Of a DNA stretch of 64,000 nucleotides, positions 14,249 through 49,600 are shown piece by piece (within the stretch, counting starts at the first letter, position 1; each line of letters starts with the position of its first letter). The notes beneath the pieces are model-generated. The model was not told the DNA's origin. It did no database searches and saw only the letters and a program-made list of their open reading frames with translations. Source of the stretch: Bilabrum cf. latius (lineage: Eukaryota); the NCBI GenBank assembly GCA_965178125.1, contig OZ237745.1:1240001-1304000 (forward strand), written 5' to 3'. The translations under genes and the position numbers were made by a program.

Positions 14249-14284
<36 letters not shown>

Positions 14285-14567: not shown

Positions 14568-14600
<33 letters not shown>

Positions 14601-23200: not shown

Positions 23201-25084
23201 GAGGCCATGGACGCGCAAGGGGGCAAGCGATCTGCTGGGGCGGGGCAGGGGCAGGGGCAGGGTGCTCAGGTCGGTGGGGGAGGAGAGGGCGATGGGGAGG
23301 ACAGGGAGGATGACACCGGGGAACAGAGCGCCAGCATGGGATCGGGGGGAGACGGGGTGGTGCTGGCGACGCTGGCCGAGGGCCTCGAGGCCTGGCCTGC
23401 GACAGTGCGGAGCTTCGTGCAAGGCACGCTATTCGTGCTGCTGTCGCACCCCGGGCTGCGACGGGACGCGCGACGCATGGGCCTGGGCGAGATCCTGGAG
23501 GGCGCGCGGGTGCAGGAGGAGGAGGAGGCCGAGATCGCCGAGGAGGAGGCGCGTGAGGCGGCAGGGGACGCCGCTCGCAGGGTCCAGGAGGGCAGGGCGC
23601 GCTGGAGGCGGACTTTTGCGCAGCACCTGCAGCTGATCGGGCAGATGCTGGGGCGTGCACTCCCAGAAGAGGAGGGCGGGAAGGACGAGGCGGAGCAGGA
23701 GCAGGAGGGGGTGGGTGACCTGGGCCCTCGTGGGCACGAGGAGGAAGACGAGGACGAGGACGAGGTGGAGGCCATCGAGGCGGGCGAAGAGGAGGACGAG
23801 GAGGAGAACAGCGCGAGCAGGCGGTGCAGTGGTGCAGCGGTGCAGGAGGCAGAGGGCTGGATCGAGAGCCCAGACGCGGACCAGGGCTTCGTGCTGCGGG
23901 CGGATGGGGGCCGCGGGGAGACCGAGGGCGAGACGCTGCTGTGGGAGTTTGCAGCAGCCGGGGCCCGTGCCAGCGAGGCATGGACCGGCCCGATGGGCAG
24001 TGGAGCTGTGCACGAGACCGGCCGCATGCCCTTGGCTCCCCCACCCGTCGGGGGTGTGGAGTTCAGCTAGCCCGGTGGTGCCCACGTGCGGCCTGCGGGG
24101 CACGGGCATGGGCTCTCCTTGGTTCCGGAGATGGAGGGCGAAGGTGAGGGGGAGGGCGATGGGGGCAGCAGCCAGGGCGGTGGCAGCAGCGCCCGAGGCC
24201 CCATGGAGCTGGAGGCAGGGTCCCGTGGGGCGCGCAGTCCGGTGGGCGTGCGGGCTTAGGCTGGCGGCCTCGGGGCCAGTGCCAGGGACTCGCTCGCTCT
24301 GTCGGCCGAAGGGGCCTCCATGCGGGATAGCGAGGTGCGCGGGGAGAGGAGAGATGGGCAAAGGGGCGGTGGCAGCGGCCGCCTGACGGAGTGGGGCTCT
24401 GACCTCCGTGGGGGCAGTGCCCTGAGCAGGGCGGGGGCTAGTGTGCTGGGGACGACTGCGAGCCAGGGCCAGGGCCAGGGGCAGGGTCAGGGACAGGGAC
24501 AGGGCGATGGGAAAGAGGGAGACGATGTGCCGGACGAGACGCAGCCTGAAGCTGCAGCCTTCGTGTCTCGCAGCAAGCTGGCGAGGACCCCCGATGGCTT
24601 GAGGGGGAGGCGGCGGGCGGGGTGGGGGCATGAGGGGGCGGAGGGGGAGGGGTTTCGAGCGGATCCAGGTGCAATGCATGGTGGTGCAATTCCCCGGAGG
24701 TCTTCTCCCTTGCGGCCGAGAAGGGAGGGTGCACCGCACGGTGGCGCGGGGGCATCTCCTGCTGACGGCAGCATGGAGGGGCGCTCGGGGCACGCGTCTT
24801 TCGGAGGCGGCGGCGGAGGTGCTGGGCGCGGCAAGGACAATGGCAAGGGGTAGGGGTAGAAGGAGCTGCCTGGTGACACCCGCGAGCTCGTGGCTTTCCG
24901 GGTGCAGAAGCAGCTGCCCAGGACGCCGCCAGGGGGTCGGCGGGCGAGGGGAGGGCACGACCCGAGGGGTCCACCAGCAGGGGCAGGTCCTTCTGGGGGC
25001 GAGGCCTACTTTGAAGACGATGCGGGCCCACAGGGCTATGGCGGTAGGGGTGGTTACGGACAGGATGGATAGCAGGCATGGTAA
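20243..25084 (+). CDS. ARMC9: LisH/armadillo-repeat protein, ARMC9 homologue (cilia-associated); about 9 in-frame TAGs
   Basis: LisH-like DEVVAEYLAWRG, FDRGDRGRFLRLW..RRLELYL, LQALRWRVTRS, GALQKCSLR, LSEFSAEFAAALLMNLCL, VRSFVQGTLFVLLS and a C-terminal AF.SRSKL.RTP. Fragments join at TAG 21071, 21983, 22598, 23171, 24068, 24257, 24851, 24857 and 25070. The first non-TAG stop is TAA 25082-25084. Confidence 0.82.
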
Positions 25085-25222
25085 ACGGCAGGCCGAAAGC
25101 AGCACGCCACACCGCCCAGGCAACTCGCGGCAGTGGGCTGCAGTCGCGAGGACGTGTTTGCCAGCCTCCCGGCATCGTATTTTGTGGTGACTGCAAGAAT
25201 GGATGCGTACAGACAACTATTT

Positions 25223-28200
25223 ATGTTACACAGTGCACATGGTAGGCTGCTCAGTTAGTTTCTGCTGCGGGGGATGTTGCAAAGCGGTCGACGTGGCACA
25301 ACCGGAGTGCCCCAACACCTGAGACGCCGTAATTTCAGCTCTGCTCTGGTATAGAGCAAAGGTTGCGGCAATATTGTAGTGCAGCCGGCCATTCAGGTGG
25401 CACGCCTGGCTCCTGCTTCTGCTCGCTCGCGCTGCGGATAGCTGCTGCTGTGGGGAATATCGAGAAGCTGCGCTGGCGAAGCACGCCGTCCAAGTGTTGA
25501 AGTAGGCACAAGTCCGCGGTAGAAATCAGATAGTCTTAGAAAGTCAGCGGGTGTCCTGAGAGCAGCTTCGCTCCATCTGCTGGGATGGACAGCAGATCAC
25601 CCGGCAGAGACAGCAGTTGCCGCTGCGCTCGATCAATACGGCGCTGAAGATGCCGAGCAGCTTTGGAAAGCCCTGTTGGACAGTGTCCCACCCGGTTTTG
25701 CCAGTATTTAGGGCTATACGCGTCCTCTTCTGTCCAGGCGATCGTACGAGTTGCTCGTAAAGTCGCTCGGGAAGGCTGCCCTGCGAGAAGCGATGCGACA
25801 GGACACAAGCCATACGACTGTGGTGTGGGCCGCTCGGCTACAGGATTTGGTAGAACACATCGCCAGATCACGGGTGCTGCTTCCTTCTCAAGACCGAGCC
25901 CGCGCTTCAGTGGCCGCGGAGCTGCTGTTCCGAGCGAGGGGCTGCCTCCTCAAGGCTCGCCGCGAGCAGATTCGAGCCGATCGGGCGAGCGGGAGGCAGG
26001 GCGGAGGCGAGGGTAAGGGACGCAAGTGGGCTATCCCGGGGTTAAAAGCGCGCAGCCCCGCTGACCTCGAGTCCATGGCTCGCATGCGGCTGGCTGCGCG
26101 GGCGGCCGAGACTGCCAAGCTGGAGGCTGGGCTCTCGAGCGGGGGCCACGGCAGCGGTGGGCCTGCGCTATCTGGCGCTGGGGATGTGGCAGGGGACAGG
26201 GGCATGCGGTTCCCGCGAGCAGCGGTCCGGCGGGAAATGGTGCGGATCGTGGAGGAGGCAACTGGTGGAGATGCACTGCATGGTGGCGCAGAGAGGACAC
26301 TACGCGAGCTGAGTCTGCGCCCTGGCGATGTGGGTGAGTTTGCGCGGCTGCTGCTGGAAGAGGGGGCGGAGGCGGAAGCGAGCGGGGGTGGTGGAGCAAG
26401 GGGGAAAGGAGAGGGAGAGGGAAAGGGGCAGGGGCAGGGCACAGTCGATCCGACAGGCCGAGTGCAAGAGGATGGTCAGCTGCAGGTTGGACAGAGGCAG
26501 GAGGCGAAAGAGCGGGTCAGGACGGGGATCCCTCGGCCAATGGGGCACCCAGGGCTGCCTGTCTCGCTGCTGCCTCCCGAGGTAGAGCTGCCCGTCCCCT
26601 CCTCCTCCGCCTCCTCCCCTCTTTCGGGTGAGGACCCAGTTCCCTCGTTGGAAGGACACAGAGAGCCCTATGACGCGCTGCTCAAGCCCTTCGGTCTGCT
26701 TCCCCACCATGCCCACGATTACCAGCCGAGGGCAGGGGGGCAGACAGGTGGATCGACCACCAGCAGTCGAGATGCCGACAGCCCGCCCCCATCCCTCGTG
26801 CCCTGCGGCGCGTCCCTGGGTCCCAGCGACCCCGTCACACTGCTTCGTCAGCAATTCGCTCCCTCTGACGCCGCGGCCTTTTTGGAGCAGCAGTGGCTCG
26901 GCTGGGCAGAGGCAAGGGAGGCCGCCCTGGGTCGACTGCAGGCACAGGGCAAGAGCGTGGAGGAGGCGCACGGTGCGCTGCCCGCCGCTCTGCAGCAGCC
27001 GCCCCCGCCCCCTCGGTGGGCGTGTGAGTTTGACCCCGAGGCTCACGGCGACTCGCTGCAGGCCGCTGTGGGAAGGGCGCTGGCAGAGCTCGCCCGGGCC
27101 CGCCCCACCGAAGCCATGGCTCTCGGAGCCAGCCCGGAGGAGTTCCCCGCCAGCTGCTCGGCGCTGATGCATCGCACTGCAGTACTCGCTGCGGTGGGCA
27201 AGAGAGGCAGGCCGCTCGATGCATGCGCCGCCCAGCTGCTGGCCCAGGCAGCGACGGAGACGGCCGCCCGCCAGAGGGACTGGCAGTTAGTGCGCGCGCT
27301 GACCAGGCGCATGGCAGCCGGCCAGCACGCGGCGACGGGAGGTGGGCTGCAGCGGGGCATTCCTCTGGCGCCGTCGAGCGGGGCGGCGGCTCGGTGGTCG
27401 AGGGCGTTGCGCAGAAGGGGCCGCGGGCAGGAGGCGATTCGGGTGCTGCAGGCGCACATGGACGCGGGGGGCCGCGTGTCTCACGCGACTCTCGTGGCTT
27501 CTCAGCGGGCAGCCCTCCTCGCGTGGGACGGGGAGGCCAGCGCGGCGGCGTGGCGGGCACACGTGCGCGGCATTGGGGGCGCCCCTGGGCTAGCGGCTCC
27601 CACGTCCTCTCCCCCGGGGGTGGAGGCCTACGAGATCCGCATGGCGGTGTTGGCCGCTGATGGGGACAGGGGGGCGGCGCTGCGGCTGCTGGACGAGGCC
27701 CAGAGGTTGGGGCTGCCTCCTACGGGCAGGCTGTACACGGGTGCTGCCGCTGCGTTGGCAGCCGCTGCTGGTGCGGGGCGGCCCCAGGGCCCCCGTGCTG
27801 AGGCGGCGCTGGTGGCCTCTGCGGGTCTCTCCAGGGAGGTGCAGGGGCCGCAGGGGCGGGGCAAGGGGCTCTCGCGCCCCACCAAGGTGTAGGTGCTGTT
27901 GGCGCAGGGGGCGGTGGGGAGGGCGGTGGCTAATGTGCTGACGCTGCTGGACGACTTCATTGCCAGGAGGAAGGAGCGCAGGTCGGTGGTCGGCATCCGC
28001 AGCGGAGCTCTCGCGCCGCTGACCCTGCAAGAGGTGCAAGCGCTGCTGGCGGCTGCTGCGCTAACCACTGCGGCTGGGGCTCGGGACGATCTGACAGCGG
28101 AGGTACTGCGGGACTATGCCGGGGAGTTGGGCGCACTGGTCGAGGCGGAGCGATCCCTCGTGGGTGGATCCAACGGGGTGTAGGTAGACGACGCAGACGG

Positions 28201-31200
28201 GCACGGTGGGGCCGGGGGCGTCGACGAGGAAGAAGGAGTCGGCTCACGGGTGGGCGTGGATAGCGGGGCGTGGGCGGCCATCCGGGAGCAGCAGCCACAC
28301 TCGTCACCTGATGGATCGCCCGGGGACCTCGTTGGCCCTGCCTCGTGGGTAGCAGCGCCGCCTCCAACCCTCACGGCAGCGTTGGCAGCAGTGACGTCAG
28401 CGTCTACGTCATCCCGGGCCGGTGAGTCAATCCGGCGATTGGCTGCCCTGCGTCGAGGCCTGCTGCGGGAGACGGGTGTCCTCGAGGAACAGCCCGGGGA
28501 GCAGGCCCTGCTTGGAAGGGAGCCTCGCTGGTGGGAGGCCTTGGAGCGACAGGCGCTCTGCGTGGGCGCGGACGTGGGCAAGTGGCCCGCGCACGTGACT
28601 GCACTCAAGGCGCGGGGGCTGTCGGGGGCGTGGAGCGACGGGCGGCCTGGGTTACGGTCGTCAGCCCTTGCTCTCCGGCAGCGCCTCGTTGGTCTTTCTG
28701 AGGCACCTCTGGGCATCAACAGTTCAGGAGCACCCTCCGTGGAGGAACAACAGGTAGTGGGCGCGCTGGCCCAGGCCTGGGGGCAAGAGGCGGGCACTCG
28801 CTCAGGAGAGGGGCACACAACGGGGAGGGCGCCGAATGTCAGCGCAGATGTCCTGGAGGCAATCGTGGGGGCGGGCCGAGGCAGCGCACAGGCCGACTGG
28901 GGCGTCGATGAGGGGGGTGACGTGCTTCAAGAAGGGGCAGCGAGAGCAATGCGGGCGGCACAGGCGCTCAGGAGGGCTGGCGGTCTGGCGGTGCTGGGCT
29001 GTGCGGAGGCCACGCGCGCGGGTGGTGCGCCACCCGCCTCTAGCGAGCACACGGCCACACGAGAGGACAGTCAGAGGGATGCCTCAATCATCGCATGGCT
29101 GGAGGGTAGTACTCAGTCGAGCGAGGATGGCAGCAGCAGCAGCAGCACTAGTCCAAACCTGGACCGTGTCGACGAGCAGCTGCTGCGGGCTGCAGACCTC
29201 GCGGATGCCGGCGACGTGGGACCAGCGGCAGCGCAAGTAGTCCGCGCACTCATGCGATGCAGTATGGCTGCTGCAGAGCACTAGCTTGGCTCGGGCACTC
29301 CTGAGGGACAGAATGATGATTCGTCATCTGTGACTGCGCCCGGGTGGCCGCTGGGGCTGCAAGGTGCACCCGTGTCTGCTGTGCGCTGGGCCGTCGCCAC
29401 GATGCTTGCGCAGTCTCCTCCTCAGGGAACAGACGCGCTGGCCCTCCTCGAGGAGGTCGAGGGCGACTGGGCCGCCCGTTGCCAGGCGCTCGCCGACGGC
29501 TGGAACGGCCTCGGGATCCGCGATGACGGGCCCGTTGAGAGTGCATTGCCGCAGTGCCCGCAGTGCATCCCCGTGGCTAGCGTGCTGCCTGTGTGTCCCT
29601 CCGTGCCCCTGGGTGCTGTGGGTCTAGCGATGGGCACCACGGGGAAGACCCTGAGGGCGGAAGAGTCGGACACTGACGTGCCGCTAGCAAGCGAGCAATG
29701 GGGCCATGGCACAGGCAGCCGGGAGCAGGGACAGGCAGACGTCGCTCGGCGGTGGCTGACGGATGCCCGGGCTGCCTGTAGAGCCGCATGGCGAGACCTC
29801 TAGGCAGGAAGGCATGCCGTGAGTCCGCCCGCGCTGAGGATCTCCGAGATATCCGGTGCGCTGGCCGCTGCTCGACGCGCGGGGGACAGCCAGCTGGCCG
29901 TCTCTGTGCTCCGGATTGCGCTTGGCGCCGATGGTGCGGATGGGTGGCCCGGGCTGGTGGCTGCGAGTCTCGAACTGCAGGCCAGGGCTGCTGCCACTGC
30001 AGCTGTGCTGCTGACGGGCTCCCCCGTGCCCCAGCACCTGGACCACGTGGGGCTGGGTCCCCTGAGGGAGGCGGCACGGCGCGCACACACGCTGGCTGCC
30101 GGGACGCAGGCGCGCGAGGAGGCGATGGAAGCACTGGGGCGGAGAGCCGCTCGGGTGGCGGAGCATGCTGCAGCTGCAGGGCAGTCCAAGCAGGCACTGC
30201 GGACGTGGACACCGACGCTGGCCGACTTCCGCTCTGGCCTGGACGCTTGTGTGAAGGCAGGATCCGAGGACGATGCCCGGGAGGTGCTGCGGTTGCTGTA
30301 GCGTGCCCAAGGCGGTTCTGTTCCGATTCCCGCCGAGATCGTGGACTCACTGCACGCGGAAGGAGGAGGTTTCCAACAGCTGGCGCTAGACGCTGCGCGT
30401 GGCGCGCTCGATGAGCGGCCTGCAAGTGAAGGAACGGGCTAGCTGGGCTCGAGCGATGCTGCTCCTGGCCTGAGCGAGGCCAGTGATGGAGAGGCTGAGG
30501 AGGAGGAGGAGGAGGATGAAGACGATGCCTCTGCCGATGACTTCCTGTCGCTATCAGACTTTGAGGAAGAAGAAGAAGATGAAAATGAAGAAGACGGCTT
30601 GGACGACGGGGGTTCATCCGATTCGGAGCAAGAAGTTGCAGGTGGTATGGGATCTGAATCTGACTCTGACTCTGACTCTGACTTGGTCGCAGAGGCAGAG
30701 GCAGATAGTGGCAAGACTCCGGCCGTTGTGCAGGTGGACGCGAGCGGTTCAGAACATGAGCAGGTAAGGCAAGCCCTGGCCGCCTACGGTCTCGCTGGGG
30801 CTTCAGCTCCGGGGAGCGATGCATTCAGCCAGGTGCCCGCGCGTCGGGGGGTCCTCTTTGGGGAGGCGCCTGGGGCTTAGGCGGGAGCCGTGAAAGTGTT
30901 TCCCGGCGCAACTGCTGCTGAACCGTCTGCCCCAGGGGCCATAGGCGCTGGTGAAGCCATTGAAAGCGCAGCGATGGCGGTGCGTGGCGGTGGCGAGGCT
31001 GTTGGCGACATCGACACTGAGAGGGACAGGGACGGTACCCCCACGAGCAGCCGCGCACGTGCCCGTGCCTGGGCCTAGGCCCTGGAGGGGGCTGCCATCC
31101 GCGCGCTGAGGAGGCACGGGGGAGAGGAAGGGCTGGCGGAGCAGATGGACTCTATAGTCGCGCGGGGAGATACGTGGTCCATTGCGAGGGAAGCTGTGGA

Positions 31201-31591
31201 GGCGGCCGGTAGGATCACTGGGAAGCGGCGGGCGCCCCGGCGGAGGGTGGACCAGATGCCTCCCGCGGTGCCGGAGCCGGTGGACTTGGAGCCTGTGGGC
31301 GAGGCAGCAATTGGCGATGCACCTGCATGCAGCAGGGGGCGGCTCGTGCTGCAGGGAGCCATGGTGGAGGCGGTGGCGGCAGCGAGCGGGCTCCGCGTGG
31401 TGGACTTGCTTAAGGTGTGCAGCGCGGCTGGCGTTAAGGTCTCGGAGAGGCGAAGGGACGCCATGCTGGCTGCGCTCGGCGAGCACGCTGCCAGGGTAGC
31501 CCTGCGAGATGCGTACAGCAGCCGGCACAGTGCCGTGGGTGGAAGCCAGCTCGCGGGCGAACTGGACTCGAGCCAGGAAGGGCGGCAGTGA
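25223..31591 (+). CDS. Large (~2,100 aa) helical-repeat protein with degenerate PPR-like motifs and a probable mitochondrial presequence; about 13 in-frame TAGs
   Basis: One frame is broken only by TAG until TGA 31589-31591. PPR-like units: EAYEIRMAVLAADGDRGAALRLLDEAQRLGLPPTGRLYT and TLADFRSGLDACVKAGSEDDAREVLRLL. N-terminus MLHSAHGRLLS..LLRGMLQSGRRG..LRRRNFSS. The start could be 25199, 25223 or 25274. Confidence 0.65.
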
Positions 31592-31808: not shown

Positions 31809-34800
31809 TCAATCGAAGATTCTAAACTGCAGGCTCAGCAGCTCAGAGTCCTGGCCACCTGACTGCTGCTCGGCCGCTGTGCTGCTGCTGGCGGAGCCCT
31901 GCCCCGGCACCTGCGTCGACTGGGAGGCTCCCGGTGCCTGGCGCACTGCAGCGGCGGCTGCCGTGGCCTCGTCGTCCATGTCTCCCATGGCTCCGAGCAG
32001 TCCACCCGTCCCAAACAGGTCGCTCGTGCCAGAATCGAAGAGGCCGCCGCCCCCACTGCCAGTGCCGCCGGCCGCAGCCCCCATCGGCGGGCTTGCCCTG
32101 GTGGCGGCGGGGTTGGGAACGGTCAGGCCGGCGCTGGCGCTGGCCATCCCGCCGCCTGAGCCGCCCCCTCCTGGCAGCGAGGGCGCCAGCATGCCCCCCT
32201 CCGGCTCCCCCAGCGAGGACCCAGCGCCCAGGGCGGCCAGCGCGCCCGATGGGCCCGAGTGCCCCCCCCACAGCGAGCTCATCTCGAACAGGCGGGAGGA
32301 GTCCTGCACCCCAATGCCCGCGTCCGCCCCGTGCCCCGTGCTCCCGCGAGGCACCGGATCGAAGCCAGCCACGGCAGAAGCCGGCTGGTAGCCCCCAGAC
32401 ATCACGGGACGCTCGCGCTCCACCGGCTGCTGCTGCTGGTGGTGGTGGTTGTTGTTGTTGTGGTGGTGCGGCTGGGGCACGTGGGCCGAGGGTCCGCCGC
32501 CCACGGTCAGCGCGCCGAGGCCCGGGGTCAGCTGGCCCAGCCCGGTGGGAACGGGCCCCAAGCTCGTGCCCGATGATGCCCCGAGCAGCCCCGCCCCTCC
32601 CGCGGACAGCGGACCGCCCCTTCCCGCGGGGGACTCGCGCGCCGCCCCCATGCCCGAGCGACCCACCGGCGGGGTGGCGCTTGTGGGGGCGCCGGGCGTG
32701 GCCCTCTGGGGTGCCACCACTGCTGCGGCGGCGGCGGCGGCGGCGGCCTGCAGGTGGTGCGGCACGTCCTCGCCAGATCCCGTCCCCGCTCCAGAGACAG
32801 ACGCGCCCAGAGCCAGCCCTTGGCTCGGGCCAGATGGCGGGTCCCACGCCCCCCCGCGCGCCCCACCTGGAAGGCCCAGCCCTCCTGCCTCCCGGGCCTG
32901 GTGCCGGCTGCGGCGAGCTCCCGGCGTGGCCACGTGCCCGCCCATCCTCTGTTCCCTGGACTTGGACTCCTCGTGGGGGCCGCCACGGGCTGAGGCGGCG
33001 CTAGAGTGCTGCTACTGCTGCTGCTGCTGCTACTGCTGCTGCTGCTGCTGCTGTCTGGCTGCCTGCCGCTCCCTTCGCTTGGCGGCGTTGGCCCGGCGGT
33101 CCGACCGCGCGTCAGAGGCAGAGGCGGACGCGGGCTTGGCCTGTCCCGAGGCAGCCGTGAGGGGAGCTGCGCGCAGAGTCGCCGGGCCTCGCGACACGGA
33201 GGGGGTTGCAGCTTCCTGGGCGGCTGCTGACCTGCGCTGCGCAGCACCCTGCGTGGCTTTGCTGGCGCCAGCTGCCGGGGCTGTGGTGGCCACAGCCGCA
33301 CTGCCGCGCTTCTTCTGCGCCGCCTCCCTGTCCCTGGCCGCCTGCTGCTGCTGCTGCCTGGCCTTCTGCTGCTGCTCTTTCGCCTGCTGCAGCCTGAGGG
33401 CCTTGGCCGCCTTCTTGGCTTCTTTCTGGGCCTCCCGCTCCTTCTTCTTCCGGGCCTTCTCCTCCTCCTTGCGACGGGCATGCGCCTCCTGCTGGTGTCG
33501 CGCCTCCCGCTCCGCCTGCTCCGCCTGCTCCGCAGCCAGGCGGGCGTCCTCAGCAGCCTGCAGCGCCTCCTGCCTCGCCTCGTCCCGGGCCCGCTCCTCC
33601 TTGGCCCTCCGCTCCTTCTCTTCTTTCGCCTTGGCCTCCCTGGCGCGGCGCTCCTCCGCCTCCTCCTCCTGCTTTTTCTTGGCGGCCGCTTCCTCCTGCC
33701 TTTTCTTCTCCCTGGCCGCCACCTCCCGCTCGTGCTTCTTGGCCTTCTGCCGCGCCTGGCGCTCCTGACGGTTCAGCTCCTCGGCGGCCTTGCGCTGCTC
33801 GTCCTCCAGCAGCGCCGAGCGCAGGGACTTGGCGTGCGCCTCCCTGCGCTCCTGCAGGCAAGCGTCCACGATGCGAACCAGCAACGCGCTCACCACCGCG
33901 CTCTCGAGGTGCCCCTGGATCCCACGGCTCGCGTCCTCGTGCCGGTTCTCCGTGACGGCACGCCCCACCACCCGTAGCTCCTGGCGGGCCCCCCTTGCGA
34001 GAGTTGAGGTCCAGCGCAGCAGCATGGACAGCAGGCACGGGGCCGCAGCGTCCTCCAGGTACCAGAAGCGCTCCCTGTCGTCGCGGCGGAAGCGCACGTA
34101 GGACAGGTGCCCGTCGTTGCTGATGATGGGCCACACCCCGTCCCGGTGCAGATTGCAGCCGACCATCCCGCGGAGGCTCAGCCACAGGGGCTGGCAGTCG
34201 ATCACGTCGCAGGTCTCTGAGGCGGTGAGCGAAGCCACACGGGCGCGCTCGGCCGGTGGCAGCGACTCGTAGTAGCTCATCCACACGCTGGGCTGGGTCA
34301 CCAGCACCGACAGGATCTGCGCGGGGTCGCTCTGGCAGGTGCGGAAGAGCCAGGGCTGCTCCCACCACCAGAATGCGTCCTTGGGCCGCGGGGGCAGCGG
34401 GGTTCCGTCCGGGCTCAGGGAGTGCACCTGCGAGGACGCCGAGGACCGTCCCCCTGCCGAGCGGTAGTCGTCGTCCTCGGCCCCGTCAGCGGCGCTGCTG
34501 GCGCGGTCGTCAGAGGGTCGGCTCGCGGCCCCGCTCAGCCCGTCGGCGCGCCCTGTGGCAGAGGCAGCCGCGGCCCGGAAGCCACCCGAGCCCTCGCCCG
34601 CTCCGAGCGACCGCAGGCGCAGCAGCATGCCTACCGCGCCGTGCGTTGCCGCGAGCGGGGACCGCACGCTACCTGCGATGGGACGAGGGGCGCCGGTCAT
34701 GCCCCCCGCAGCGGACGAGGCGCCCAGGGCACCGCGCCGCGCCCGGCCCGCGCCGGCCCCGTGCCCTCCCCTGCGCCTCGAGGAACTCCCTCCCCTAGAG

Positions 34801-36512
34801 CCCACGGACCGGCCCTGGCTGCGGCCCCTGGCGCCGTGCCCGTCGGGCCCCTCGGCGGGTCCCCCCGGGCCACCCCCGTGCGTCGAGCCGTCCCCGTCCA
34901 GGCTGTCCCCGTCCGAGTCGCTCTCGGGCCCGATGCCGTCGCCGTCCCCGCCCGGGCGGTTCGGCACCACCGCTGCTGCCCTCACACCCGCGAGGGCAGC
35001 GAACGAGCTGGCAGCCGCCGCCGATGCCACGCTCGAGGGGACGCCCCCACTCCCTGAGGCCCCGTCCGCGGCTGCCAGTGCCGCGTCGGGTGCAGCACTG
35101 TGCGCCCCCGCGACTCCCGCCGCAGTCCCCGCCGCCACGCCTCGCAGCACCGCGGCCCCCACCGTCGCTCGGAGGGCGGCACCGCTGTCGCCTCCACCGC
35201 TGCTGCCGCCGCCGCTCACCCCCAGCAGGCCCGCGGCCGCGCTCCCGCCCCCGCCCCCGCCTAGAGTAGGTGTGCTGGAAGGCAAGCTGAGCAGCGAGTC
35301 CAGCGTGGGGCCCCCGTGCGCGGAGGAGGAGTGCGAGTGGGAAGACCCGCCACCGAACTGGCTCGCAGCCGAGGGCCCGCCCGCCTGCATGGCCGCAGCC
35401 CGGCCCACGGCGGCTTCCACCTGCTGAGCGGCTGCCTCGAGTGCCTCCGAAGAGGCCCCCGGCAGGCTCGGCCCCCCCGCGGTGGAGGAAGAGGCACCCA
35501 CACCAGGCATGCACGAGGCCCCCGCCAGCCTCGTGTGGTTGGCCCGGGCCTGCTGCCGCACGAGCCGCAGAGCCTTCTTTAGGTTTGCGGCAAAGACCGT
35601 CTCCTTGCCCGCGTCCGTTTCGTCCATCCGCACTGCCTCGCTGAGTGCCCTCTCGTCCTGGGGCAGCGTGTCGGGCACTCGGGGCAAGAAGTAGTCCGTG
35701 CCCAGCGCATGCTCCACGTCCCGGTCGAAGATCACGGAGGGCGGCTTGTCTGCGTCCGCCAGCCGCTCGAACATGAGGCTCACCGGCTGGGAGAGCCACG
35801 CGTCCCGCATGCGGTCGATCGCCTCCGCCACCAGCGCGTCAGTGGCGCGCTGGTCCACGAGGGCGGCCGCCACGTCCTCGTCCTCGTCCTCCAGCTGGTC
35901 CGCCAGCATCTCGCGCATGGCCTCGCCCATGACCCGCTGCATGAAAGGCGCGCGCTTGCTGCGGCGGCGGCTCCCGTCGTCCCCCGCCCTCTCTTCAGCC
36001 TCCCTGGCCGCCTGCTGCACCTCGAGGAGCGCCTCCTGCTCGCATGCCTCGAACACGCACACGCTAACCGTGTCTACCAGCACGTCCCGGCGCAGCGGCT
36101 CCTTGAGCACCAGAGCAGAGGCATACCTGAGCACGAGGGCGCGCTTTTCCACCCTGGACAGGCGCCCGTAGAGCGGGCACTTGGCCGTGAGGTGCGCGTT
36201 GTCCTTGAGGAGGATGCGGTCCAGGATGATGTGCACGCCCTCCTTGATCAGCAGCCACTGCTTGCCCCCGCCCCAGTCAGTTTTGGAAGATACGACCACA
36301 GGGAGCGGGGCATTCATCTGGCCCGGGTGGGGGTGGTGAGGGTGCACGTGCGGGGACAACGGGTGCCCCACAAGGTCTTGCACCGGAAGGCCAGTCCCAG
36401 GCTCCATCGGACCCGCAAACCCCACGGCCCCATGGCCATCTGGAGACTGTCGCACTGGAGGGGGCTCTTCCGGTCCAAACGCTGCCTGCCGGAGCTTGTC
36501 TCCGGGCAGTTG
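31809..36512 (-). CDS. Hypothetical large protein with a long K/E/R/Q coiled coil, polyQ and low-complexity tracts (main exon; the 5' exon is probably upstream)
   Basis: ORFs 33030..36455 and 31809..32945 share a frame and join through TAGs 33030 and 33012 inside a CAG tract. Ends at TGA 31809. A branch/acceptor-like CACTAAT..CCCGCAG ends at 36513, but the upstream exon is not resolved. Confidence 0.7.
33009..33053 (-). repeat. Coding polyQ tract (CAG)7-TAG-(CAG)5-TAG-CAG
   Basis: Read directly in the frame of the 31809-36512 gene. Confidence 0.9.
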
Positions 36513-37478: not shown

Positions 37479-38918
37479 ATGGCTTCAACCCCTGAAATCG
37501 ACGGTAAGGAAGCATCTTTTTCGGAATCCGTGTGCCTGTAACCCTTGCATCCTCAATGCTGGGTGTTGCAGGGCAAAACCTTTGTTTGACGTTTCTCCCC
37601 TGGGTGTGGTACCTTGCTCAGCAGTCACTGCTCTTTGTTCTTTCACTAGTTAGCCGTGCTAATGTAATTTTTTAATACTAAATAATTCGTATTGTGGATA
37701 AAATGCTGATTCTGAGAGCCCAGGGAATTGTTGACGCTCGTTTGATTTTTTCCCCTGCTGGGTGGATGCCGGGTGTTGTTGATGTCCTTGTACCGTCATG
37801 TCTGCTAGGCTGAGGATCCATAGCCCCCAATAACCATTTTAATTATAGTACGTCTGTTCTTTGCTACATTTGATGGCGGTCTGTTATTCTACTGAATCAG
37901 CCAACACGCAACCGTGCTGTTGTTGCTCGGTGGCGATACGAAGCTCTCTAGTAGAGTACAGCGCACATACTTGTTGCGTTCCGCGGTGCTCCTGTTTCCA
38001 TTTGCAGTGAATGCGATCATCGACAAGCTGCTGTCAGTTAGGGATGCCAGGCCTGGCACGCAGGTGCACTTGGCAGAAAGCGACATCCGCGGCTTGTGTT
38101 TGAAGGCAAGGGAGATCTTCTTGGAACAACCGATCCTGCTGGAGCTAGAGGCGCCAATTAAAATTTGCGGTGATATTCACGGCCAGTACTATGATCTGCT
38201 GCGCCTGTTCGAGTACGGTGGGTTCCCGCCTGACGCGAACTACCTCTTCCTCGGCGATTACGTCGACCGCGGGCAGCAGAGCCTGGAGACTATCTGCTTG
38301 CTGCTGGCGTACAAGATCAAGTATCCCGAGAATTTCTTTATGCTCCGGGGGAATCACGAGTGCTCGTGCATCAGCCGGATCTACGGGTTTTTCGACGAGT
38401 GCAAACGCCGGTACAATGTCAAGCTCTGGAAGCTCTTCATGGACGTCTTCAACTGCTTGCCGCTGGCTGCGACCATCGATGAGAAGATCTTGTGCATCCA
38501 TGGAGGCCTCAGCCCGGAGCTGACTTCCATCGAGCAGATCAAGAGGATCGTCAGGCCGACCGACGTGCCCGACACTGGCTTGCTCTGCGACCTGCTCTGG
38601 TCCGATCCGGACAGGGACATCGTCGGGTGGGGCGAAAACGACCGGGGCGTGAGCTTCACGTTTGGCCCCGATGTGGTCAGCGCGTTCCTGAAGCGACATG
38701 ACTACGATTTGATCGTGAGGGCCCACCAGGTGGTGGAGGACGGGTACGAATTCTTCGCCAAGAGGCAGCTCGTGACCCTGTTCTCGGCGCCGAACTACTG
38801 CGGGGAATTCGATAATGCAGGGGCGATGATGACAGTGGACGAAACCTTGATGTGCTCGTTCCAGGTGCTCAAGCCTGCCGAGAAGCGCAAGGCTGGCAGG
38901 CGGGGACCCGGCAGGTGA
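37479..38918 (+). CDS. PP1: Serine/threonine protein phosphatase 1 catalytic subunit; exons 37479-37503 and 38008-38918
   Basis: [27 protein letters not shown] and [13 protein letters not shown]. Exon 1 ATGGCTTCAACCCCTGAAATCGACG|GTAAG spliced to TTTGCAG|TGAAT gives [17 protein letters not shown]. Ends TGA-TGA with no internal TAG. Confidence 0.95.
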
Positions 38919-39792
38919 TGAAGTCGTTGGTGGCTTTCCGCGGGTTTAAGAAGCGATGAGCACTGGCGGTGGCTTTGTTATGCACGGTCCAAGTTTGAAT
39001 CCAACCTGCATGTTTTCGTTCAATTCTCTACATGATCTAGCGTGCTGTGCACAGCACCGAAGCCACGAAAAACCAGACTGGCAATTTGCAAACTACACAC
39101 TACTCCATGCGCATGCGAAGAAACCCCGGCCGCAGAGTGGGACTAAAAAGCCGGGCTTTTCCAGTGAGGTGCAATGCACTTGTTTGTATGTACAAAAAGC
39201 TTAGCATCTGCCAGTTCGGTACCCTGTAGCCCTGTTTGACCCTGTTGGCGGACTGCGGAATGCGACGGTTTGCAAGCCGCTTGCGCTGTACTGTTGGTTT
39301 TCCTTGGGGTTGTGTATAGCATGCATGCAGTCCGTGGCGTCATGAAATTTGAAATTTGTTGTACACTTCGAGTTTCTCGCCTTGACTCGTGGCACGCTAG
39401 TGTTTGTTACAGCTTTGGCTGCACACACCGCTTGGATCTCCTTGCCCCATTGTACATTTTGGCGCCTTGCAAGAGAATCTAGGAGCCTTGCCGTGTCGCA
39501 AGAGAATTTTAGGCGTATTTTTACCTGTGCACAAGGCAGAGCCTTACTCAGTACCTCGTGTTCAATGAGTCTCGGAGTACGTACCCAGCCACAACCTCTC
39601 GCAGTCCCACGATATTCGAGCTAGAACAAGGCAACATACGGTTTCGACCTATCTGCTCACTTGTAGATACAGTCTGCGGCATTTTAGACTGATCGCGAGT
39701 GCAGCGGCGACGTATAGCTGCTGCACGTGAGCTATAGGAGCCACTGATTGAACCCATCGGTTTTCGTACTTCGCGTCGGTCTCATTGCTAGA

Positions 39793-40536
39793 ATGGCGGC
39801 TGCAGCAAGCGGCAGAGACATGGGCGTAAGATATTTGGCCATCGGCCGGCGCACGGATGGGGCGGTGCTGACCTCGCTGGTCACACCGCAGGGGAGCTAG
39901 GCGTCGGCGGACCAGGGCAAGCTGGACGAGCTGGTGACAAACTTGCTGCAGCACGGCAGCTGGGACGAAATGGAGAGCGACGTGCTGCAGCTAGATGACG
40001 CAGACATGATGATTAACGCGCTGCAGAGCAACCCAGTGGTGGTGTTCGCCGTGACGGGCAAGGACTACCCTGACAGGCTCCTCTTCGCCAGGGAGAGCGG
40101 GCAGGCCGGCCTGCTGAACGAGATGCTGCAGCGGCTGGATGATGACTTGGGGAGGGACCTGGCCGTGGGGTGCGCCCCGGGGGGGCTGGGGCACAAGGGG
40201 CGCACCATGCTCTCCTCGGTGGCGGACAAGTACGGCTCTCCTGAGAAACTCGACAGCATGCTGCGGGTGCAGGGCAAGCTGGACGCGGTGAAGGGGGTGA
40301 TGATGGACAACATCGACGGGATGATGCGCATGACGGAGCGTGCAGAGGACGTGGAAGAGAAGACGGACGAGCTGAGGAGAGGGGCCAAGCAGTTCCAGAA
40401 CAAGGCAGGAGACCTCAAGTGGGCCATGTGGTGGAGAAACTGCAAGCTGTGGTGCCTCATCGCAGTACTGGTCATTTGTGTGATCCTCTACTTTGTCATA
40501 CCGATCATCCGCCCGCACCTGGATGGGGACAAGTGA
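39793..40536 (+). CDS. Longin-type R-SNARE (VAMP7-like); in-frame TAG at 39898
   Basis: The longin-like N-terminus (VRYLAIGRRTDGAVL) lies upstream of the TAG. It is followed by the SNARE motif KLDAVKGVMMDNID..EEKTDEL..AKQF, MWWRNCKL and a C-terminal TM segment. Ends at TGA. Confidence 0.88.
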
Positions 40537-40698
40537 CGGGTACAGGAACGGTGGATGGCAGCGGGGCTTGCCTGTATTCGGGCGGTGGGCGGGGGTGCCA
40601 CGACAAAAACCGTGCGATGTATTCTGTGCAAATGAGTTCTATGCTACAACGACTTCAAAGCAATCAAGTCACGCAGAGGAGCGGCGGCTCCACTCGGC

Positions 40699-41542: not shown

Positions 41543-43447
41543 ATGGGCTCTACATCGAGACCACCGCAAGGGGGACTCGGGGGGTGTTTTTCGCCTCTAG
41601 TTATTCTGATTGCGTTCACCATGACCAACATTATCAACTATATGGACCGGGGCATCGTTCCGGGGGCACCCGAGGAAGTAGGAGAGTTCGCTATGCATTC
41701 AACTGGCTCCACTAATCAGGATACCCTGATCGGTAGCCTGTAGAGCGCATTCATCGGCGGGTATGCTGTTGCTAGCCTTGTCTTCGGGCATCTTGTGCAT
41801 CTTTACCCACCTTTCAAGCTTGTGGGAATTGGACTTGCGATTTGGGTAGTGGCTATCGTAGCGAGCGGCGCTGCTCCAAGCTACTACATGCTTCTTGCAG
41901 CCCGCGTGCTATCAGGGGTAGGGGAGGCGAGCTTCCAGTGCGTGGTTCCTACCTACATTGATGATAACGCTCCACCTGCCCAGCGATCCTTGTATCTGGC
42001 TGTGTTTTATATGGCTATACCGGGAGGGACGGCTGTTGGGTATGGCTGGGGCGCTGCGATCTCGAGCGCGCTCTCGTGGCGGTGGGCCTTCTATCTAGAG
42101 GCACCTCTCATGCTTCCGTTCGTGATCCTCTGCTTTATGTTCCCTGACCCGCCGAAGCACGAGCACCCAGCCTTTTTGGACGAGCGGCAAGCGGGCGTAG
42201 ATGAGGCCGAGAAAGGCGGCCTGCTCGCGAACAGCGCAGAGGCTGATGGGGCTCCCTCCAGCAGCCTAGGGTCGGAGTCAGAACAGAGCCTGCTCTCTGC
42301 GAGCTACGGAGCACCGACCGACGGGGCCAGCTAGGCGGGACCAGACGCTCCCACCTCGGGCCCCCCCCGGCCGCCCACGGTGATCGAAGAGCTGATGGGC
42401 GTGCTGTCCTCGCCCGAGTACGTCTTCGTGGTGCTGGGGTACGCCGCTTACACGTTCGTGGTAGCCGGACTAGGGAACTTCGGACCAACGTTCGTTATCG
42501 GTTTGGGTCTCTTTGAGGACGAAACCACGGCCTCGTTGCTCTTCGGGGCCATCATCGCGGTGGTGGGCTTCTCGGGCACACTCATCGGCGGGCTCGTGAT
42601 CGACTGCCTGCAGGCGCGCAACAGCAAGGCATAGGAAGAGAGGATCGGCATCGACAACTTGTCTCCAGGAGATGAGGCTGGGCAAGGAGCGGGCCGTCGG
42701 TCCGCCGAAATGGTCTCCGTGGGAGGGTCTGCTGCTAGTCTCGGCCAGGACCAGAAGCGCGACCCAGAGGGCGATTTCGACCAGAACGGGGACTAGCTTG
42801 TGCCGAGCGATCGGTAGTCTAACCCCCGCGATGGTGGCAGTGACAGTGACGATGCTGTAACGCTCCGCAGCCTGGACCTGAAGCTGATCTCCACCACGCC
42901 ACTGACCTTTGGGTCTACGCTGGTGGGGTTCGTGCTATGCCTGCTGTCTCCTTTCTTTGCGGCATCCAGAGGCGGCTTCTTGTCAGTGCTGGGGCTGGGA
43001 GCACTGTGCCTCTTCATCAATACCGCTGCTGTCAACCTGGCCATCCTCGCGTCGGTTCCCCCGGAGTCCAGACCTTTCGCTGTGGGGCTAGGCACAGTGG
43101 TCTTGCACGCTCTCGGGGACGTGCCATCGCCCGTGATCATCGGACAGGTAGCGGACCAGTTGGCGCCTGGCACTACCAAGGATAGAAGCCACCGCGGGCT
43201 GCAAATCACGATGGTTCTGACGACAATGTGGCTGCTGTGGGCGCTGCTGTTTTGGGGTGGTGCGTGGTTCCTGGCTAGCAGGCGGATGGCGCGGCACGAA
43301 CGCGGGAAGGACTACAAGGAGCTTGGAGGCAGAGACACGGATGGACTTCTCGCTGATTACAAGAATGGTGGAGGGTGGTACCGGCAGCTAGGCATTCGGT
43401 GGTGTTGCTGTTCTCAGCCGGATTTGGCGGCTAAAGCCAGCATGTAA
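41543..43447 (+). CDS. Spinster-like MFS transporter; 5 in-frame TAGs
   Basis: NIINYMDRGIVPGA, IGSL[TAG]SAFIGGY, ARVLSGVGEASF..P.YIDD.AP, SWRWAFYLE and HALGDVPSP.IIG. TAGs at 41741, 42332, 42632, 42794 and 42815. Ends at TAA 43445-43447. Confidence 0.9.
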
Positions 43448-43630: not shown

Positions 43631-46600
43631 TCACATCCAAGGGTGCCAGCTTGGCGAGGTCTGCGAGAGTCGGGCCTCGTCGACTGCTGCCTTGATCAGG
43701 ACGAGTGACCTCGTGCGGTAGCTCGGCGAAGTATCTTCACTTGTGGGGAAGGACGGATCGGCACAGATCGCCTGCGCGATGCCGAGCGGCCGCTCCGCTT
43801 GTACGGGCCGCTGCTTCGCATCCATCTCAGCATCCGTTCTCTCCTGTCCCTTGAGGCGGTTGTGGACCACCCAGCCCTAGTTCGGCCGGAGAACCCGCCT
43901 CGCAAAATCACTGATTGCAGTTGTGACCACTGCCGAGCCTGCTCCTGATGCCGCGCTCTCAGCGGAAGCACCGCCCTGCTCCGCGCTGGCCTTGGCGAGC
44001 TCCTCGTCGGCCGCAGCCGCACGCGCAGCTCGCATAGCCGCATGCTCGTGCTCGCCTCGCAGCCGCAGTCCCATGGCGACGATCTTATGCAAGTTCGCTT
44101 CTGAGTCAGGCACGGCCTCCTCAAGCCCCTGTGAGCCTGTGGAGCGCTTGCTGTGCGGAGCCTCGCCTTCCTACTTGCGGATCTGCTGCAGCCGATACAG
44201 CCGCCGCAGGGCAGCGGCGTGACGATCCCAGTCAGCCGGCGAACCCACCCTCCAGGCGTCTTCCTGCAGCACCCGCTGCGGGACCAGACCTTCCAGCCGC
44301 CCGAGTATGCGCCCTGTGTCACGAACATACGACGAGCGCAGCAGCAGTGCCAGCCGCTACAAGTCCGAATCCGTCCGAGCACCACCGTCCGCAAGGGAGC
44401 CTCCTGACCGATGGGCGTGAAGAGTGTGCCACGCAAGCGTGTCATTGCGCAGATGCAGCGCCAACGAGGATGCCACCCACTGACCACGCCGCACCAGCGC
44501 GCCCGCCACAGCAGACATGCTGTACCCGACAGGACCGGCCAGGCCAAACGGAGTCAGGAGCTGCTGCATGCCCCTGGACAGCCGGAATGGGAGACGCGAG
44601 CGCCAATCCACCTCAGCCATCCGACCTGACTCTGCGTACCGCACGTGCAGCGCGGCGTGCGTCATCTCTCCCCGCGCAAGAGACAGTAGGGTGTCTTCGG
44701 GGCCAGCGGCAGGCACGCCCATGGCGTGGGCCACGGTTGCATGGGTGCCAACATGAGCAGCAACTCGCTCCCGAAGGGCTAGCAGCGCCGATGGCGACGG
44801 GAGCACGCCGGCCAGCGTCTACACGAGGCTCGACGCGGGTACCACGGCACCGCAAATAGCGCGATACGCAGAGTGTTTTGAGGAGGCTGCGTCGGCTGCG
44901 AGATGCAAAGGATCGCTATCCGCACCACTGTGCAGTTTTCGTCGATTTGCAAGCACTCTGGAGCCAGCCTCTGCCGCCATGCGCCAGGGCGCCTCAACTG
45001 CCGCCTCAACGTCGCAGTCGTCGTCTGTCAGGGCGAGACGGGCACATCGGTCCTGAAGGAGTTGAAGCATGCTTGCTGACCCGGCCGTGTCAGCCTATAC
45101 TCTCACACAGGAAGATAAAGGCACAACAGTGGGAGTGTTCAGCCGCAGGCGCCTCCGCCTAGAGTTGGCGTGGCGTAGCAGCGACGAGGTCACCAGCCTT
45201 CCAGTGGCCGCCATGAGGATGTCCCGCTGTGTGGCCTGCGAGTGGGAGCTCTGCACTAGCAAGCCGTACGAGAGACCGTCGTCTCCCCTTAGCTCGATTC
45301 TTCGCTACACCTAACCGTTGGCCTGCAGTCGCACTCCCACGCGCGGCTCCACCCCGACGACTCGAGCAGCCTTCACAGCCGACGAATCAGAGAGTAGGTC
45401 TCCGATGTGGTGCCGACCAGGCACCTCGAGCCGCCTCAACTGCAGCTCCGCGAGCCCCCAGGAGGTCTCCACGAGTCGCTGCGAGGCAACGTGGCGCCCG
45501 AGGCCGTTCCAAGCTGCCCCCTGCCAGGCGGCCCAATCTTGCGATGGGTGAGCCAGCATGGGCCGTCCGTCAAGGCCTGCCAGCACGGCGGCCTCTACCT
45601 CAGACTTTGAGCCACCTTGTGCCTGAACTGCCACACCTGCCAATAGGCGAGACCTCCAGCGCCTGACAGCCACGAGCAGCTCGCCAACCGTCGCTGGGAA
45701 CTGAGCACCACCGGAGGCGCTTCCAGCACCCGGAGCTGCGCGCGGAGCCAGCTCCAGTGCCATATGTGACAGTACGGATCCAGGCACCGCTTTGCGAGTC
45801 CGCTCGTGCAACTTTGCAAGCTGCTCCCGCATGCCGGGGCGAAGATGCTCCGTAGCTTCACCAGTGCCCACCGCCGCGCGGGCCAGAGGCAAGTGACCGG
45901 CATCCACGATGAGCTCCATCTGTCGCGCGCATTCTTGTAGCATGGATTCAGGGACAGGGAGGCTGGCGTGAGACATTGATCCCTGTCCGGCAGATCCCGC
46001 GCCAACGGCAAGCGCCTCGGCCTGACCGCACAGTGACCGGAGTAGCAGGTGCATACGCTCCGCAGCTCGATCCAAGTGATGAGGAGCCAATTTGCGAGCA
46101 ACGTTGTCGGCAAAATGCATCATCTCACAAGCCATGGACGTGTGATTTCGGCGAAGAAGGGTGTGCGTCTCGTCTGCTTCTCTCTAGGATATCTCAACAG
46201 CAGGTGCGCTGGCAGACGTGCCTCCGTCATCCTCCATGGCGGCCTACGCCTTGCCATTGGAGCTAGACCCGGCCGATCCATCGTGGCTCCGCGCTGACTT
46301 CCTGCGGTGCTGCATGCCACGCAGCTGGTAGTAGATAGCCTGCGGATGCCTCAGGGCCAGCGCCTGCAGCATGTCCTTGGCGGTTCGGAACTCGTGATGT
46401 GACAAGGCAGCAAGCAGAGCGGGGAGCTGGGGCACCCACTGCTGTGCCTGCACAAATCGACCGTGTTTACTCGCAGCCGCGCTCAGAACAGAGGTCTGAT
46501 CATCAAAACAGAGCAGCCAAAGCACCCTGCCTAGCTCCAGCGACGTATAGTTGACGCCGTGGGTGCACGCCAACAAGTAGGCGACGATGGCTTGCGCACC

Positions 46601-49600
46601 TACGTGCAAGACTCCCCGCCTGTCCGTTGGCTTGGGGGATCGTCCTGCCGAGCTCGACCTAGACTACGCTGACGGTGCCATGCCGCCAAATTGAGCCGAC
46701 TAAACTGACGACTTTACGATGGCCTGCACGGCTTTCCGTACACCATCTGGCGAGGGCACGTACTTGCGAATCAGCTCTGTATGCGGGCGAACGGGCGGAG
46801 ATGGAAGCACAGGTGCTGGCGGGGCCACGCCCGGCTACAAACCAGCACTGGCCGCCTACTTGGCAGCCTCTGTATCCTCCTTGTGTTTCTTGACGCTAGC
46901 TTCCTCCTCCTGCTGTGTTTTGGCCTCGTCGTCGGGGGACCAGCCTCGGAGAGCATCCGCGACTGCCTCGGCAGCAACGTGGTCGCATTCGCCCTCAGCT
47001 TGCCTGCGAGCCAGATCGGAGAGATCGTGGTCATCCGGCAGACGCCCACCCACTGTTTGTCCTCCCATCGCTTCGTACTGTCTGACGTGCGCCAGATACA
47101 CTGAGTGAAACAATGTGTCCAGGAATCGGCCCCAGGACAGCCAAGCCTTGCGGTGTCGATCGTGCACCTGCACAGCGAGCGCAAAGGTGCGGTTCGCTTC
47201 ATACCACCGACTCCCGTCGTGACTGCTCAGCTCCCTAAAGAACAGGGCGCGGACGCGGAGCAACTCCGCCTTCTGTGGCGGCATGAAGTAGGTCAGGTTG
47301 GTCCCCTGCAGCAAGGACAATCCACCACGCCTCTGACCATGCACCCGCTCCGGGTCCAGCGGGCAAAACACCGCTGCAGCCGAAGAGATCTTGGTCTTCT
47401 CATCATTTGTAAGGTGCGGTGGGTGCTGACGGGGCAGGGCAGCCAGCTCGGCCGCTGATGACGGGCCCGACGGGATCACGGCTCCCTGCGGAGCAGCGTT
47501 TTCGCGGATGGCACGCAGGCCCGCCTCACTGTCTCGCACCAGCGCAGTATGGGCTGCCACCAGGCCCTAGACAGACTATTCTGCGGCTGGGTTATCAGGA
47601 GCAAGACTGGCACCACCGGGCTCTGCCGGGGCCACCCCAGCATTGAGCAGAGAAGGGCCCATGTGAGGAGGCAGAAGCGAGTCATCGCCTTCCGAATGCA
47701 GGCAGGCCAGAATCTGCTCACGGGCCTTCTGGAATGCATCATACACGTCCATGGTAGCCAACTGGTACAACCTGGCTAGCGTTGTTGCGCTCACGTCGAT
47801 CAGGCCGAGCTTGCGGCTCACGTGGGCGAGCCGGATCACCGTCCATGGCGCATCGTGCACAGAAGACAGCTCATGCGGATTACCATTGAACATAGGCTGT
47901 AGCCAGTTCGTAACGAAAGCGAACACGTGGTGCCTCCAAGTGAGCAGGCTGTCCCACACACTTACCCCGTCCCATCGATTGGGCAACCTGTTGCGCCAGT
48001 CCGACAACACAGGCTGAAGATCTGGCTTGTTCTGCTTCTTCTTGCCTTGCTCTGAGTTTCTTTGTCGCGTTATCTTGTTCAGGGCTTGCAGGATCCGAAC
48101 GGCTTCCTGCGACTCGAGAAGCTGCTGGGACTGCGCCAGCATGGCTTCGCGCATTCCCACACCCACACCAGTGCCTGAATACATCTGAAACTTGGATAGG
48201 GCAATCCGCATTGCGTTGTCCCAGGTGTGCATAGCTTGCTGGGAGTTCCCGCTCTGCACGGCGACCTCGACTTCGTGAAGCCTTCTGGCTGGGTCCTTGC
48301 TTGCTTCCATAGTCACGACTGGGTTCTTCAGCATTGTGCGCATCACATCCCACTCTGCCAACTTGCTCGAAGCCTCTGCTAGCATCACTGCATCGCCCAC
48401 TTCCTGCGCAAATCGACCGACCACAGTCCACTGGCAGAGCTGCTTCGTAGACGCAGCCCAGCGAGACTGCCAAAGCTCCACCTCGGTCCGGGACGGGCAA
48501 CTTGCCCAGATGCTTGGCAGCAAGTCGTGGGTTCCAGCATGACTATGGCTACCGGCTCCAGACAGTCCACCGGCACCACTTAAGCCTGCTTGTGCCTGTG
48601 CATGACCTGTCAGCGAGCCTCCAGAACCAGTGGCACCTGAACCAACGCTACCAAGCATCCCGCCGGCTCCATTGGGTACCCCGGTCTACCCAGTGATGGA
48701 AGAGGAGCGCAGCAAAGCGACCTATGGGTGCCAACGCGGCACGCCGGTTGACGATCCACCCGACTGCACTCTAGCAGCCGCAGCCTGTTGCGGGGCGGCA
48801 ATTCCATCTCCCAGACCAGGCGCGATTCCCAGCACGTGAAGTGGCGGACCTCGTCCGGTTCCAGGCGCTGCGCCCGGGTTCTGCACAACTGCACCCTCCC
48901 CGACAGAAGCACCGGACGAAGCAGGCCCGGTTGCCCCGCGCTTGCCCTTGCGAGCCGCCGCTGACGATTCGGAACCCGCCGAAAATGTTCCAAGCGAAGC
49001 GGACCTGATGCCAAGCTGCCTTGCCTCAGCAGCAGTGCCACCATAAGTAAATCCAGTTGCGGGGGCCGCCACCGCGGGCACGAGGCCAGACTGGAGCGCT
49101 GAACGTCGAAGCTCCTCCTCCCCGCTGCCTAGTTGTTCCGTTTCCGCCGGCTCGCCAAATGAAGCTAGTCTTCGCTGCAGTGGCATTGCAGCATCCACGA
49201 TCGAAGCCTGGGCAAACTCGAGCTGCCCAAGACTACCCAAGCTTAGCTCACGGTCACTGGGACGAGTGGACGTGAACTGCCGTGTCACAGCAGATGCATC
49301 CAATTGTTCAGAACCTGGCATAGCAGAGCTAGAGCTGGAGCTGGCAGATGCACTAGACGACGAATTTCCTGCTGTGCCGCTGCGTTCCATGGCCGATGCC
49401 AAATGATCGCCGCTGGGCATCACGCTGGCGCCACGTATTGCAGCAGGCCCATCGTAGTCGGTGTGAATAGGCTCTATGAGCGGTACCGAGTGTGACGATA
49501 CGGCTCGTTCAAGCACAGCTGGGGACAGCTTAGTCTCGGGCGCGCGCTTCCGCCGGCGTCTCTTCGTAGGTGCACCTGAGCGTGAATGCTGTAGTGCCCT

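Follow-up and report, generated by a model that had tools for sequence, protein, structure and literature searches.

Nuclear codes in which UAG has been split from UAA are rare, and the available sections of one source name a rhizarian, Iotanema, Scotinosphaera and a few ciliates (PMC11687900). In the fornicate Iotanema spirale, UAG encodes glutamine while UAA and UGA are stops, according to the accessible parts of its descriptions (PMC5304391; PMC9161772). The ciliates Hartmannula sinica, Trochilia petrani and Protocruzia tuzeti are described, in the available text, as having the same table-15 code on the evidence of alignments at conserved glutamines (PMC11687900). As far as the sections on mechanism in Iotanema go, UAG can be read without UAA only by the anticodon CUA, for which a duplicated tRNA-Gln(CUG) is the simplest origin, and eRF1 must cease to recognise UAG, for which a T32G change has been proposed (PMC5304391). 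The closest named relative of the organism studied here is Cafeteria roenbergensis, with a genome of about 70% GC, and the non-standard code given in the available part of its genome description is mitochondrial only, with UGA read as Trp (10.1101/751586). The accessible text on Cafileria likewise mentions a non-standard code for the mitochondrion only, again with UGA as Trp (PMC6723347).

Here, we analyzed a 64-kb stretch of DNA, hereafter the window, for which an earlier note had proposed from glutamine tracts that UAG encodes glutamine in a code like table 15. This proposal is supported by comparison of orthologues and by TAA and TGA, which are absent in frame and end the genes. UAG is very probably glutamine genome-wide, with UAA and UGA as stops (translation table 15).

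Coding content and gene ends

The window is nuclear DNA of a GC-rich, intron-poor protist. GC content ranges from 54 to 74% per 2 kb, and introns appear to be present in some of the genes. With TAG read through, scattered frames became whole eukaryotic genes, i.e., those for an aldo-keto reductase, nucleoside hydrolase, Zn2Cys6 protein, ubiquitin-conjugating (UBC)-domain protein, 3-beta-HSD/cytochrome b5, ARMC9, PP1, synaptobrevin, MFS transporter, and TRRAP (Table 1). Reading TAA, TGA, or TAA together with TAG as sense made the main frames not meaningfully longer than reading TAG alone, and TAR as sense would only join the ARMC9-like gene to the next gene over one TAA.

Table 1. Genes and sequence patterns of the window, with their TAG codons and stops.
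Feature	Position	Strand	Details
Aldo-keto reductase	1166..2635	-	TAG within domain (codon 121), ends TGA
IU nucleoside hydrolase	2846..4090	+	two TAG within domain, last two codons TAG-TGA
Zn2Cys6 protein, 2619 aa	4169-12028	-	10 TAG, ends TGA
TAG-(CAG)6	4274..4294	-	near end of 2619-aa Zn2Cys6 protein
Ubiquitin-conjugating-domain protein	12280..15744	-	9 TAG, ends TGA
ARMC9-like gene	20243-25084	+	9 TAG, ends TAA
GGG-TAG-GGG-TAG (Gly-Gln-Gly-Gln)	24848..24859	+	in ARMC9-like gene
2130-aa protein, no Pfam match	25199..31591	+	13 TAG, ends TGA
Host gene of polyGln tract, 1532 aa with TAG read through	31809..36407	-	ends TGA
PolyGln tract	33009..33053	-	residues 1119-1133 of host protein
PP1 catalytic subunit, last exon	38007..38918	+	no TAG, ends TGA, lineage marker
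Synaptobrevin/VAMP	39790..40536	+	1 TAG, ends TGA
Spinster-like MFS transporter	41543..43447	+	5 TAG, ends TAA
TRRAP/Tra1 gene	43631..64000	-	6,789 open codons, runs beyond window, 58 TAG, no TAA/TGA

Eleven genes with 18,030 codons contain 109 TAG, 610 CAG and 140 CAA codons in frame, and neither TAA nor TGA. TAG is present in nine of the eleven and constitutes 13% of their glutamine codons (109/859). In the two shifted frames, there were 119 and 114 TAG compared to 109 in the coding frame, 43 and 55 TAA compared to none, and 280 and 333 TGA compared to none; hence TAG is not depleted in the coding frame, whereas TAA and TGA are barred from it. Table 6, in which UAR encodes glutamine, was rejected on the basis that no in-frame TAA occurs in the 18,030 window codons or in the 3,402-codon frame of the second sequence described below, L001.

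Nine of the eleven genes stop at TGA and two at TAA, and three further frames beyond these all end in TGA. None of the 14 gene ends inspected (TGA 12, TAA 2) needs TAG as terminator, although one gene ends TAG-TGA. UGA is the main stop in this organism, ending TRRAP (WHPWM-TGA), PP1 and others; for UAA there are only the two terminal examples. These ends bear on the alternative that UAG is dual, i.e., read as glutamine within genes but as a stop close to the poly(A) tail, like the context-dependent codes of ciliates and trypanosomatids. The nucleoside hydrolase or the ARMC9-like gene, in which a TAG lies four codons upstream of the TAA, could end at its near-terminal TAG, and the gene ends seen number only 14. 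However, all 14 have TGA or TAA in frame, both near-terminal TAGs precede a normal stop, and the UBC protein runs for 57 more codons after its first late TAG. On these 14 ends, we regard a dual UAG as improbable.

Other features of the window genes were also recorded. The TAG-TGA end of the nucleoside hydrolase (4085-4090, +) is either a final glutamine or the relic of a tandem stop. The 2619-aa protein (4169-12028) carries at its N-terminus a Zn2Cys6 cluster of fungal type, in a genome that is stramenopile-like. The ARMC9-like gene and the gene of the 2130-aa protein are in the same frame (junction at 25082-25199, +), and a single TAA splits their 3,814 otherwise open codons. The frames of 3-beta-HSD (18243-19829; 15 Gln, all CAG) and PP1 (37896-38918) lack TAG, and well-expressed genes may avoid this codon. 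Positions 16345-19829 hold two probable sterol-pathway genes, head to head: the NSDHL-like 3-beta-HSD, which has a fused C-terminal cytochrome b5 domain, and a membrane protein with no Pfam match that we take to be cycloeucalenol cycloisomerase-like. A small frame at 40699-41085 (-) contains two TAG and paired Cys motifs, and looks CHCH/MIC19-like by eye, with no Pfam match.

Comparison of TRRAP with close relatives

The TRRAP of the window is a single open frame of 6,789 aa or more, and most of the evidence on decoding comes from it. Long insertions of low complexity make it far longer than the yeast homologue P0003 (3,842 aa), and there are relatives of 5,700-6,200 aa. TAG provides 18% of its glutamine codons (58/324). 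Four runs belonging to three studies have contigs over window 43500-63400, and the comparison lists neither differences nor gaps nor joints in any of them. In X1 and in X5, which are from different studies, a single contig spans the TRRAP stretch with no other letters and no gaps, X1 being possibly the source of the window sequence; X6 and X7 are guessed to be RNA and cover the gene patchily, in pieces. The runs with the stretch 37500-43600, X1-X7, carry three organism labels (A, B, C); these may be synonyms, or the flagellate may be present in other cultures.

A profile search brought up TRRAP fragments with 96-98% identity to the window. Two of these, P0148 and P0149 (96-97% identical), have glutamine at all five internal window-TAG sites, and P0148, P0149, P0155, and P0198 each stop one codon before a window TAG. 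From the protein records of these fragments, we infer that such ends would arise from a standard-code gene caller meeting shared TAGs, and that the unshared TAGs would be CAA or CAG in the relative. A search by DNA pattern yielded 10,207 bases of TRRAP from a second species, L001, which is 65% identical to the window gene over 3,338 aligned codons; metagenome and viral contigs gave no match to protein patterns. The L001 coding frame of 3,402 codons has 51 TAG, no TAA and no TGA, bringing the TAGs of the two species to 160, with TAA, TGA and frameshift all absent. P0150 and P0153 correspond to the frame of L001 and do not count as separate evidence. GC content of L001 (1-10207) is 56%, and TAG represents 28% of its glutamine codons (51/182).

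These alignments bear on a further alternative, in which a standard code applies and UAG is lost from the mRNA, either through U-to-C editing or through splicing of short introns that lie in frame and end with TAG. TAG can serve as an intron acceptor, and introns do appear to be present in some of the window genes. Nevertheless, the TAGs align gap-free, codon for codon, with CAA or CAG of the relatives, and the contigs of X6 and X7, patchy and only guessed to be RNA, have no listed differences or joints over TRRAP. Removal of UAG from the message is thus very unlikely compared to its translation as glutamine.

The identity of the residue was assessed on 2,132 well-aligned codons, defined by at least 60% local identity and no gap within five columns; 1,206 others were excluded. 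Opposite a window TAG, L001 has glutamine at 9 of 16 positions and TAG at two; opposite an L001 TAG, the window has glutamine at 13 of 26 and again TAG at two. Glutamine still came first when all aligned codons were included (11/27 and 15/49, respectively). The 38 non-TAG partners include 22 Gln (CAA 12, CAG 10), five Ser, two each of Thr, His and Pro, one Lys and one Leu, and the rate of non-glutamine partners (16/38) is like that of CAG and CAA. With Gln as the TAG residue, the log-likelihood was -66.8, and the next best, Lys, gave -127.1; as a control, the same test was right for 59 of 60 sense codons, with a matrix that includes their own pairs. L001 has TAG opposite 13 of 86 window glutamine codons, compared to 11 of 2030 other codons (p = 6e-13). 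This orthologue comparison is what settles UAG as glutamine, above all the 12 TAG-CAA pairs, in which the codons are two bases apart. TAG is exchanged with both CAG and CAA between the relatives.

We also examined more distant homologues. For TRRAP, 146 were used, with six close fragments excluded and an alignment with a misplaced P0153 (A1) dropped. Only three TAG columns have at least five well-aligned distant homologues, and one has a glutamine majority (column 2936, Q in 54/102; column 347, R in 9/12; column 2979, variable). Raw BLAST pairs with four distant TRRAPs placed Q opposite TAG in 6 of 72 cases. In the MFS transporter, the column of TAG codon 67 (41741-41743) has Q for 25 of the top 40 homologues and for 36 of all 120. 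PDB searches with the aldo-keto reductase and nucleoside hydrolase revealed no conserved TAG column, and the three PDB alignments listed have L or V opposite the TAG of the former. To judge from these alignments, distant homologues say little about the TAG residue and close relatives decide.

A different residue for TAG as a sense codon, such as Leu, Glu, Ser, Tyr or pyrrolysine, is highly improbable. Ser at 5 of the 38 L001 partners and the mostly Arg column 347 of distant TRRAP homologues would fit such a reading. Against it, glutamine is ahead by 60 log units and was found at all five sites in the close relative; moreover, Glu, Tyr and Trp partners are absent and Leu occurs once, even though GAG, TAC/TAT, TGG and TTG are common and one step away from TAG. 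Sequencing errors or pseudogenes have a negligible probability, given that the X1 and X5 contigs of different studies agree without other letters or gaps (albeit X1 is possibly the source) and that two species share 160 TAG without TAA, TGA or frameshift. We are accordingly highly confident, as far as sequence comparison can tell, that UAG serves as a third glutamine codon in the window organism and at least one further species of the same clade.

Glutamine tracts

The three patterns from which the earlier note argued are all present. It described (CAG)7-TAG-(CAG)5-TAG-CAG, in which the TAGs occupy 33030-33032 and 33012-33014, and TAG-(CAG)6 without giving the minus strand on which both are read; GGG-TAG-GGG-TAG is on the plus strand. 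The GQ repeats mentioned elsewhere in the same ARMC9-like protein also exist, coded by GGN-CAG at residues 1001 and 1409.

The protein that hosts the first tract has no Pfam match, a charged, coiled-coil-like middle and a low-complexity C-terminus. Without TAG read-through, its gene would comprise 1,126 codons up to the first TAG. We scored five segments of this gene with a codon model for which six other genes served as the training set. Log-odds were +34 to +127 for the Gln frame and -37 to -130 for the Ser and Ala frames; the two segments downstream of the tract TAGs scored +33.9 and +49.9 in the Gln frame, compared to -37 to -55. As the Gln frame is favored on both sides, the tract is not an out-of-frame AGC/AGT (Ser) or GCA/GTA (Ala) repeat, and the downstream scores indicate that translation runs 400 codons past it.

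The prediction that TAG would be enriched only in polyQ was followed within the window. Of the 27 codons in Gln tracts, 3 are TAG, compared to none of the 139 in tracts of G, E, S, A or P (Fisher p = 0.004); this is suggestive only, as the three TAGs belong to two tracts. A less strict flank test found TAG at 2/24 for Q but also 2/171 for A, with 0/41 for E, 0/38 for L, 0/7 for K, 0/90 for S and 0/93 for G. Enrichment of particular residues near TAG is weak (Q, z = 1.6-1.7; K, z = 2.9 three codons away). C-to-T is the commonest mutation in a CAG microsatellite, whatever the meaning of TAG. The polyQ argument therefore reached the right conclusion but is weak by itself, because CAG changes easily to TAG in any code and two tracts carry it. 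The TAGs in the polyQ tracts would be silent CAG-to-TAG transitions.

Lineage of the organism

The window most probably derives from a bicosoecid stramenopile related to Cafeteria, outside C. roenbergensis. The best named match was C. roenbergensis for both the MFS transporter (42% identity) and PP1 (86%, with other named matches at 83% or below). In quick trees, the window grouped with C. roenbergensis and one further row for PP1 (SH-aLRT 99) and joined the Cafeteria group for the MFS transporter (SH-aLRT 91, not starred). These positions beside C. roenbergensis, in two single-gene quick trees with one named bicosoecid, point to a probable bicosoecid stramenopile.

A TRRAP tree of 51 of 53 rows (two excluded as short or unmatched), which includes no named bicosoecid, placed the window and L001 in a long-stemmed clade (support 100) near giant TRRAPs. 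These neighboring giants are unbroken on record, at 5,668-6,211 aa, which suggests that TAG is not sense there; the reassignment appears limited to the clade that unites the window, the close relative and L001. P0152, a TRRAP near this clade, clusters with a Symbiodinium sp. KB8 record named TRA1, which may come from a flagellate in that assembly.

Mechanism and relation to known codes

By analogy with known cases, a tRNA-Gln with anticodon CUA would read UAG and not UAA, having presumably arisen from tRNA-Gln(CUG) by one change, and eRF1 would no longer recognise UAG. The 64-kb window contains no tRNA gene, Rfam match, rRNA or eRF1 gene.

This kind of code is already known, and the lineage appears new for UAG as glutamine. 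In the available sections of the open-licence PubMed Central and bioRxiv literature, we found no nuclear UAG reassignment in stramenopiles. The available parts of PMC11412368, PMC12574857, PMC12153298, PMC10120064, PMC13768787 and PMC6492006 give no nuclear case in this group, and those of PMC11687900 make no mention of a stramenopile. The balance tips slightly towards an unreported, independent change of UAG from stop to glutamine in the bicosoecid clade, the first nuclear code change in Stramenopiles. With similarly guarded confidence, we suggest a change that dates back far enough for species 65% identical in TRRAP to share it, and that arose in a GC-rich genome with UGA as main stop, unlike the UAA-dominated earlier cases. 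Translation-code tables in the supplements of protist genome and phylogenomic papers could already record the change, and the authors of three 2025 studies with the same sequence may know of it.

With a relative of Cafeteria, the codes in which only UAG has become glutamine gain a major branch of eukaryotes. Given that the well-sequenced Cafeteria stands alongside with no nuclear deviation noted in the available text, the changes in eRF1 and tRNA should be findable by direct comparison, and proteomics material seems to exist, since the same sequence is in runs of three studies. Standard gene calling fragments the proteins of this clade and hence hides it from protein databases. Cafeteria is host to a giant virus and a virophage, and one can now ask whether the code is a barrier to viruses or has been adopted by them.

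The table-15 code described here probably arose independently of those of Iotanema and the ciliates. According to the accessible text on Iotanema, this unrelated member of the Metamonada uses mainly UAA as stop, compared to TGA in 12 of 14 window genes, and UAG is likewise a minority glutamine codon there, at about 8% compared to 13% in the window and 28% in L001 (PMC5304391; PMC9161772). The table-15 ciliates are, in the available sections, alveolates that prefer UAA as stop, whereas the window organism is a GC-rich relative of Cafeteria (PMC11687900). Table 6, listed there for many ciliates, hexamitids, Streblomastix, ulvophytes and Amoeboaphelidium, has UAG as glutamine in common, but these organisms reassign UAA too, which the window organism and L001 do not (PMC11687900). 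Finally, code-15 phages of the crAss-like type share TAG as glutamine, as far as the available part of their description goes, but in a bacterial RF1/RF2 setting, whereas the window, with its TRRAP, PP1, VAMP and ARMC9 genes, is eukaryotic and nuclear (PMC9523058).
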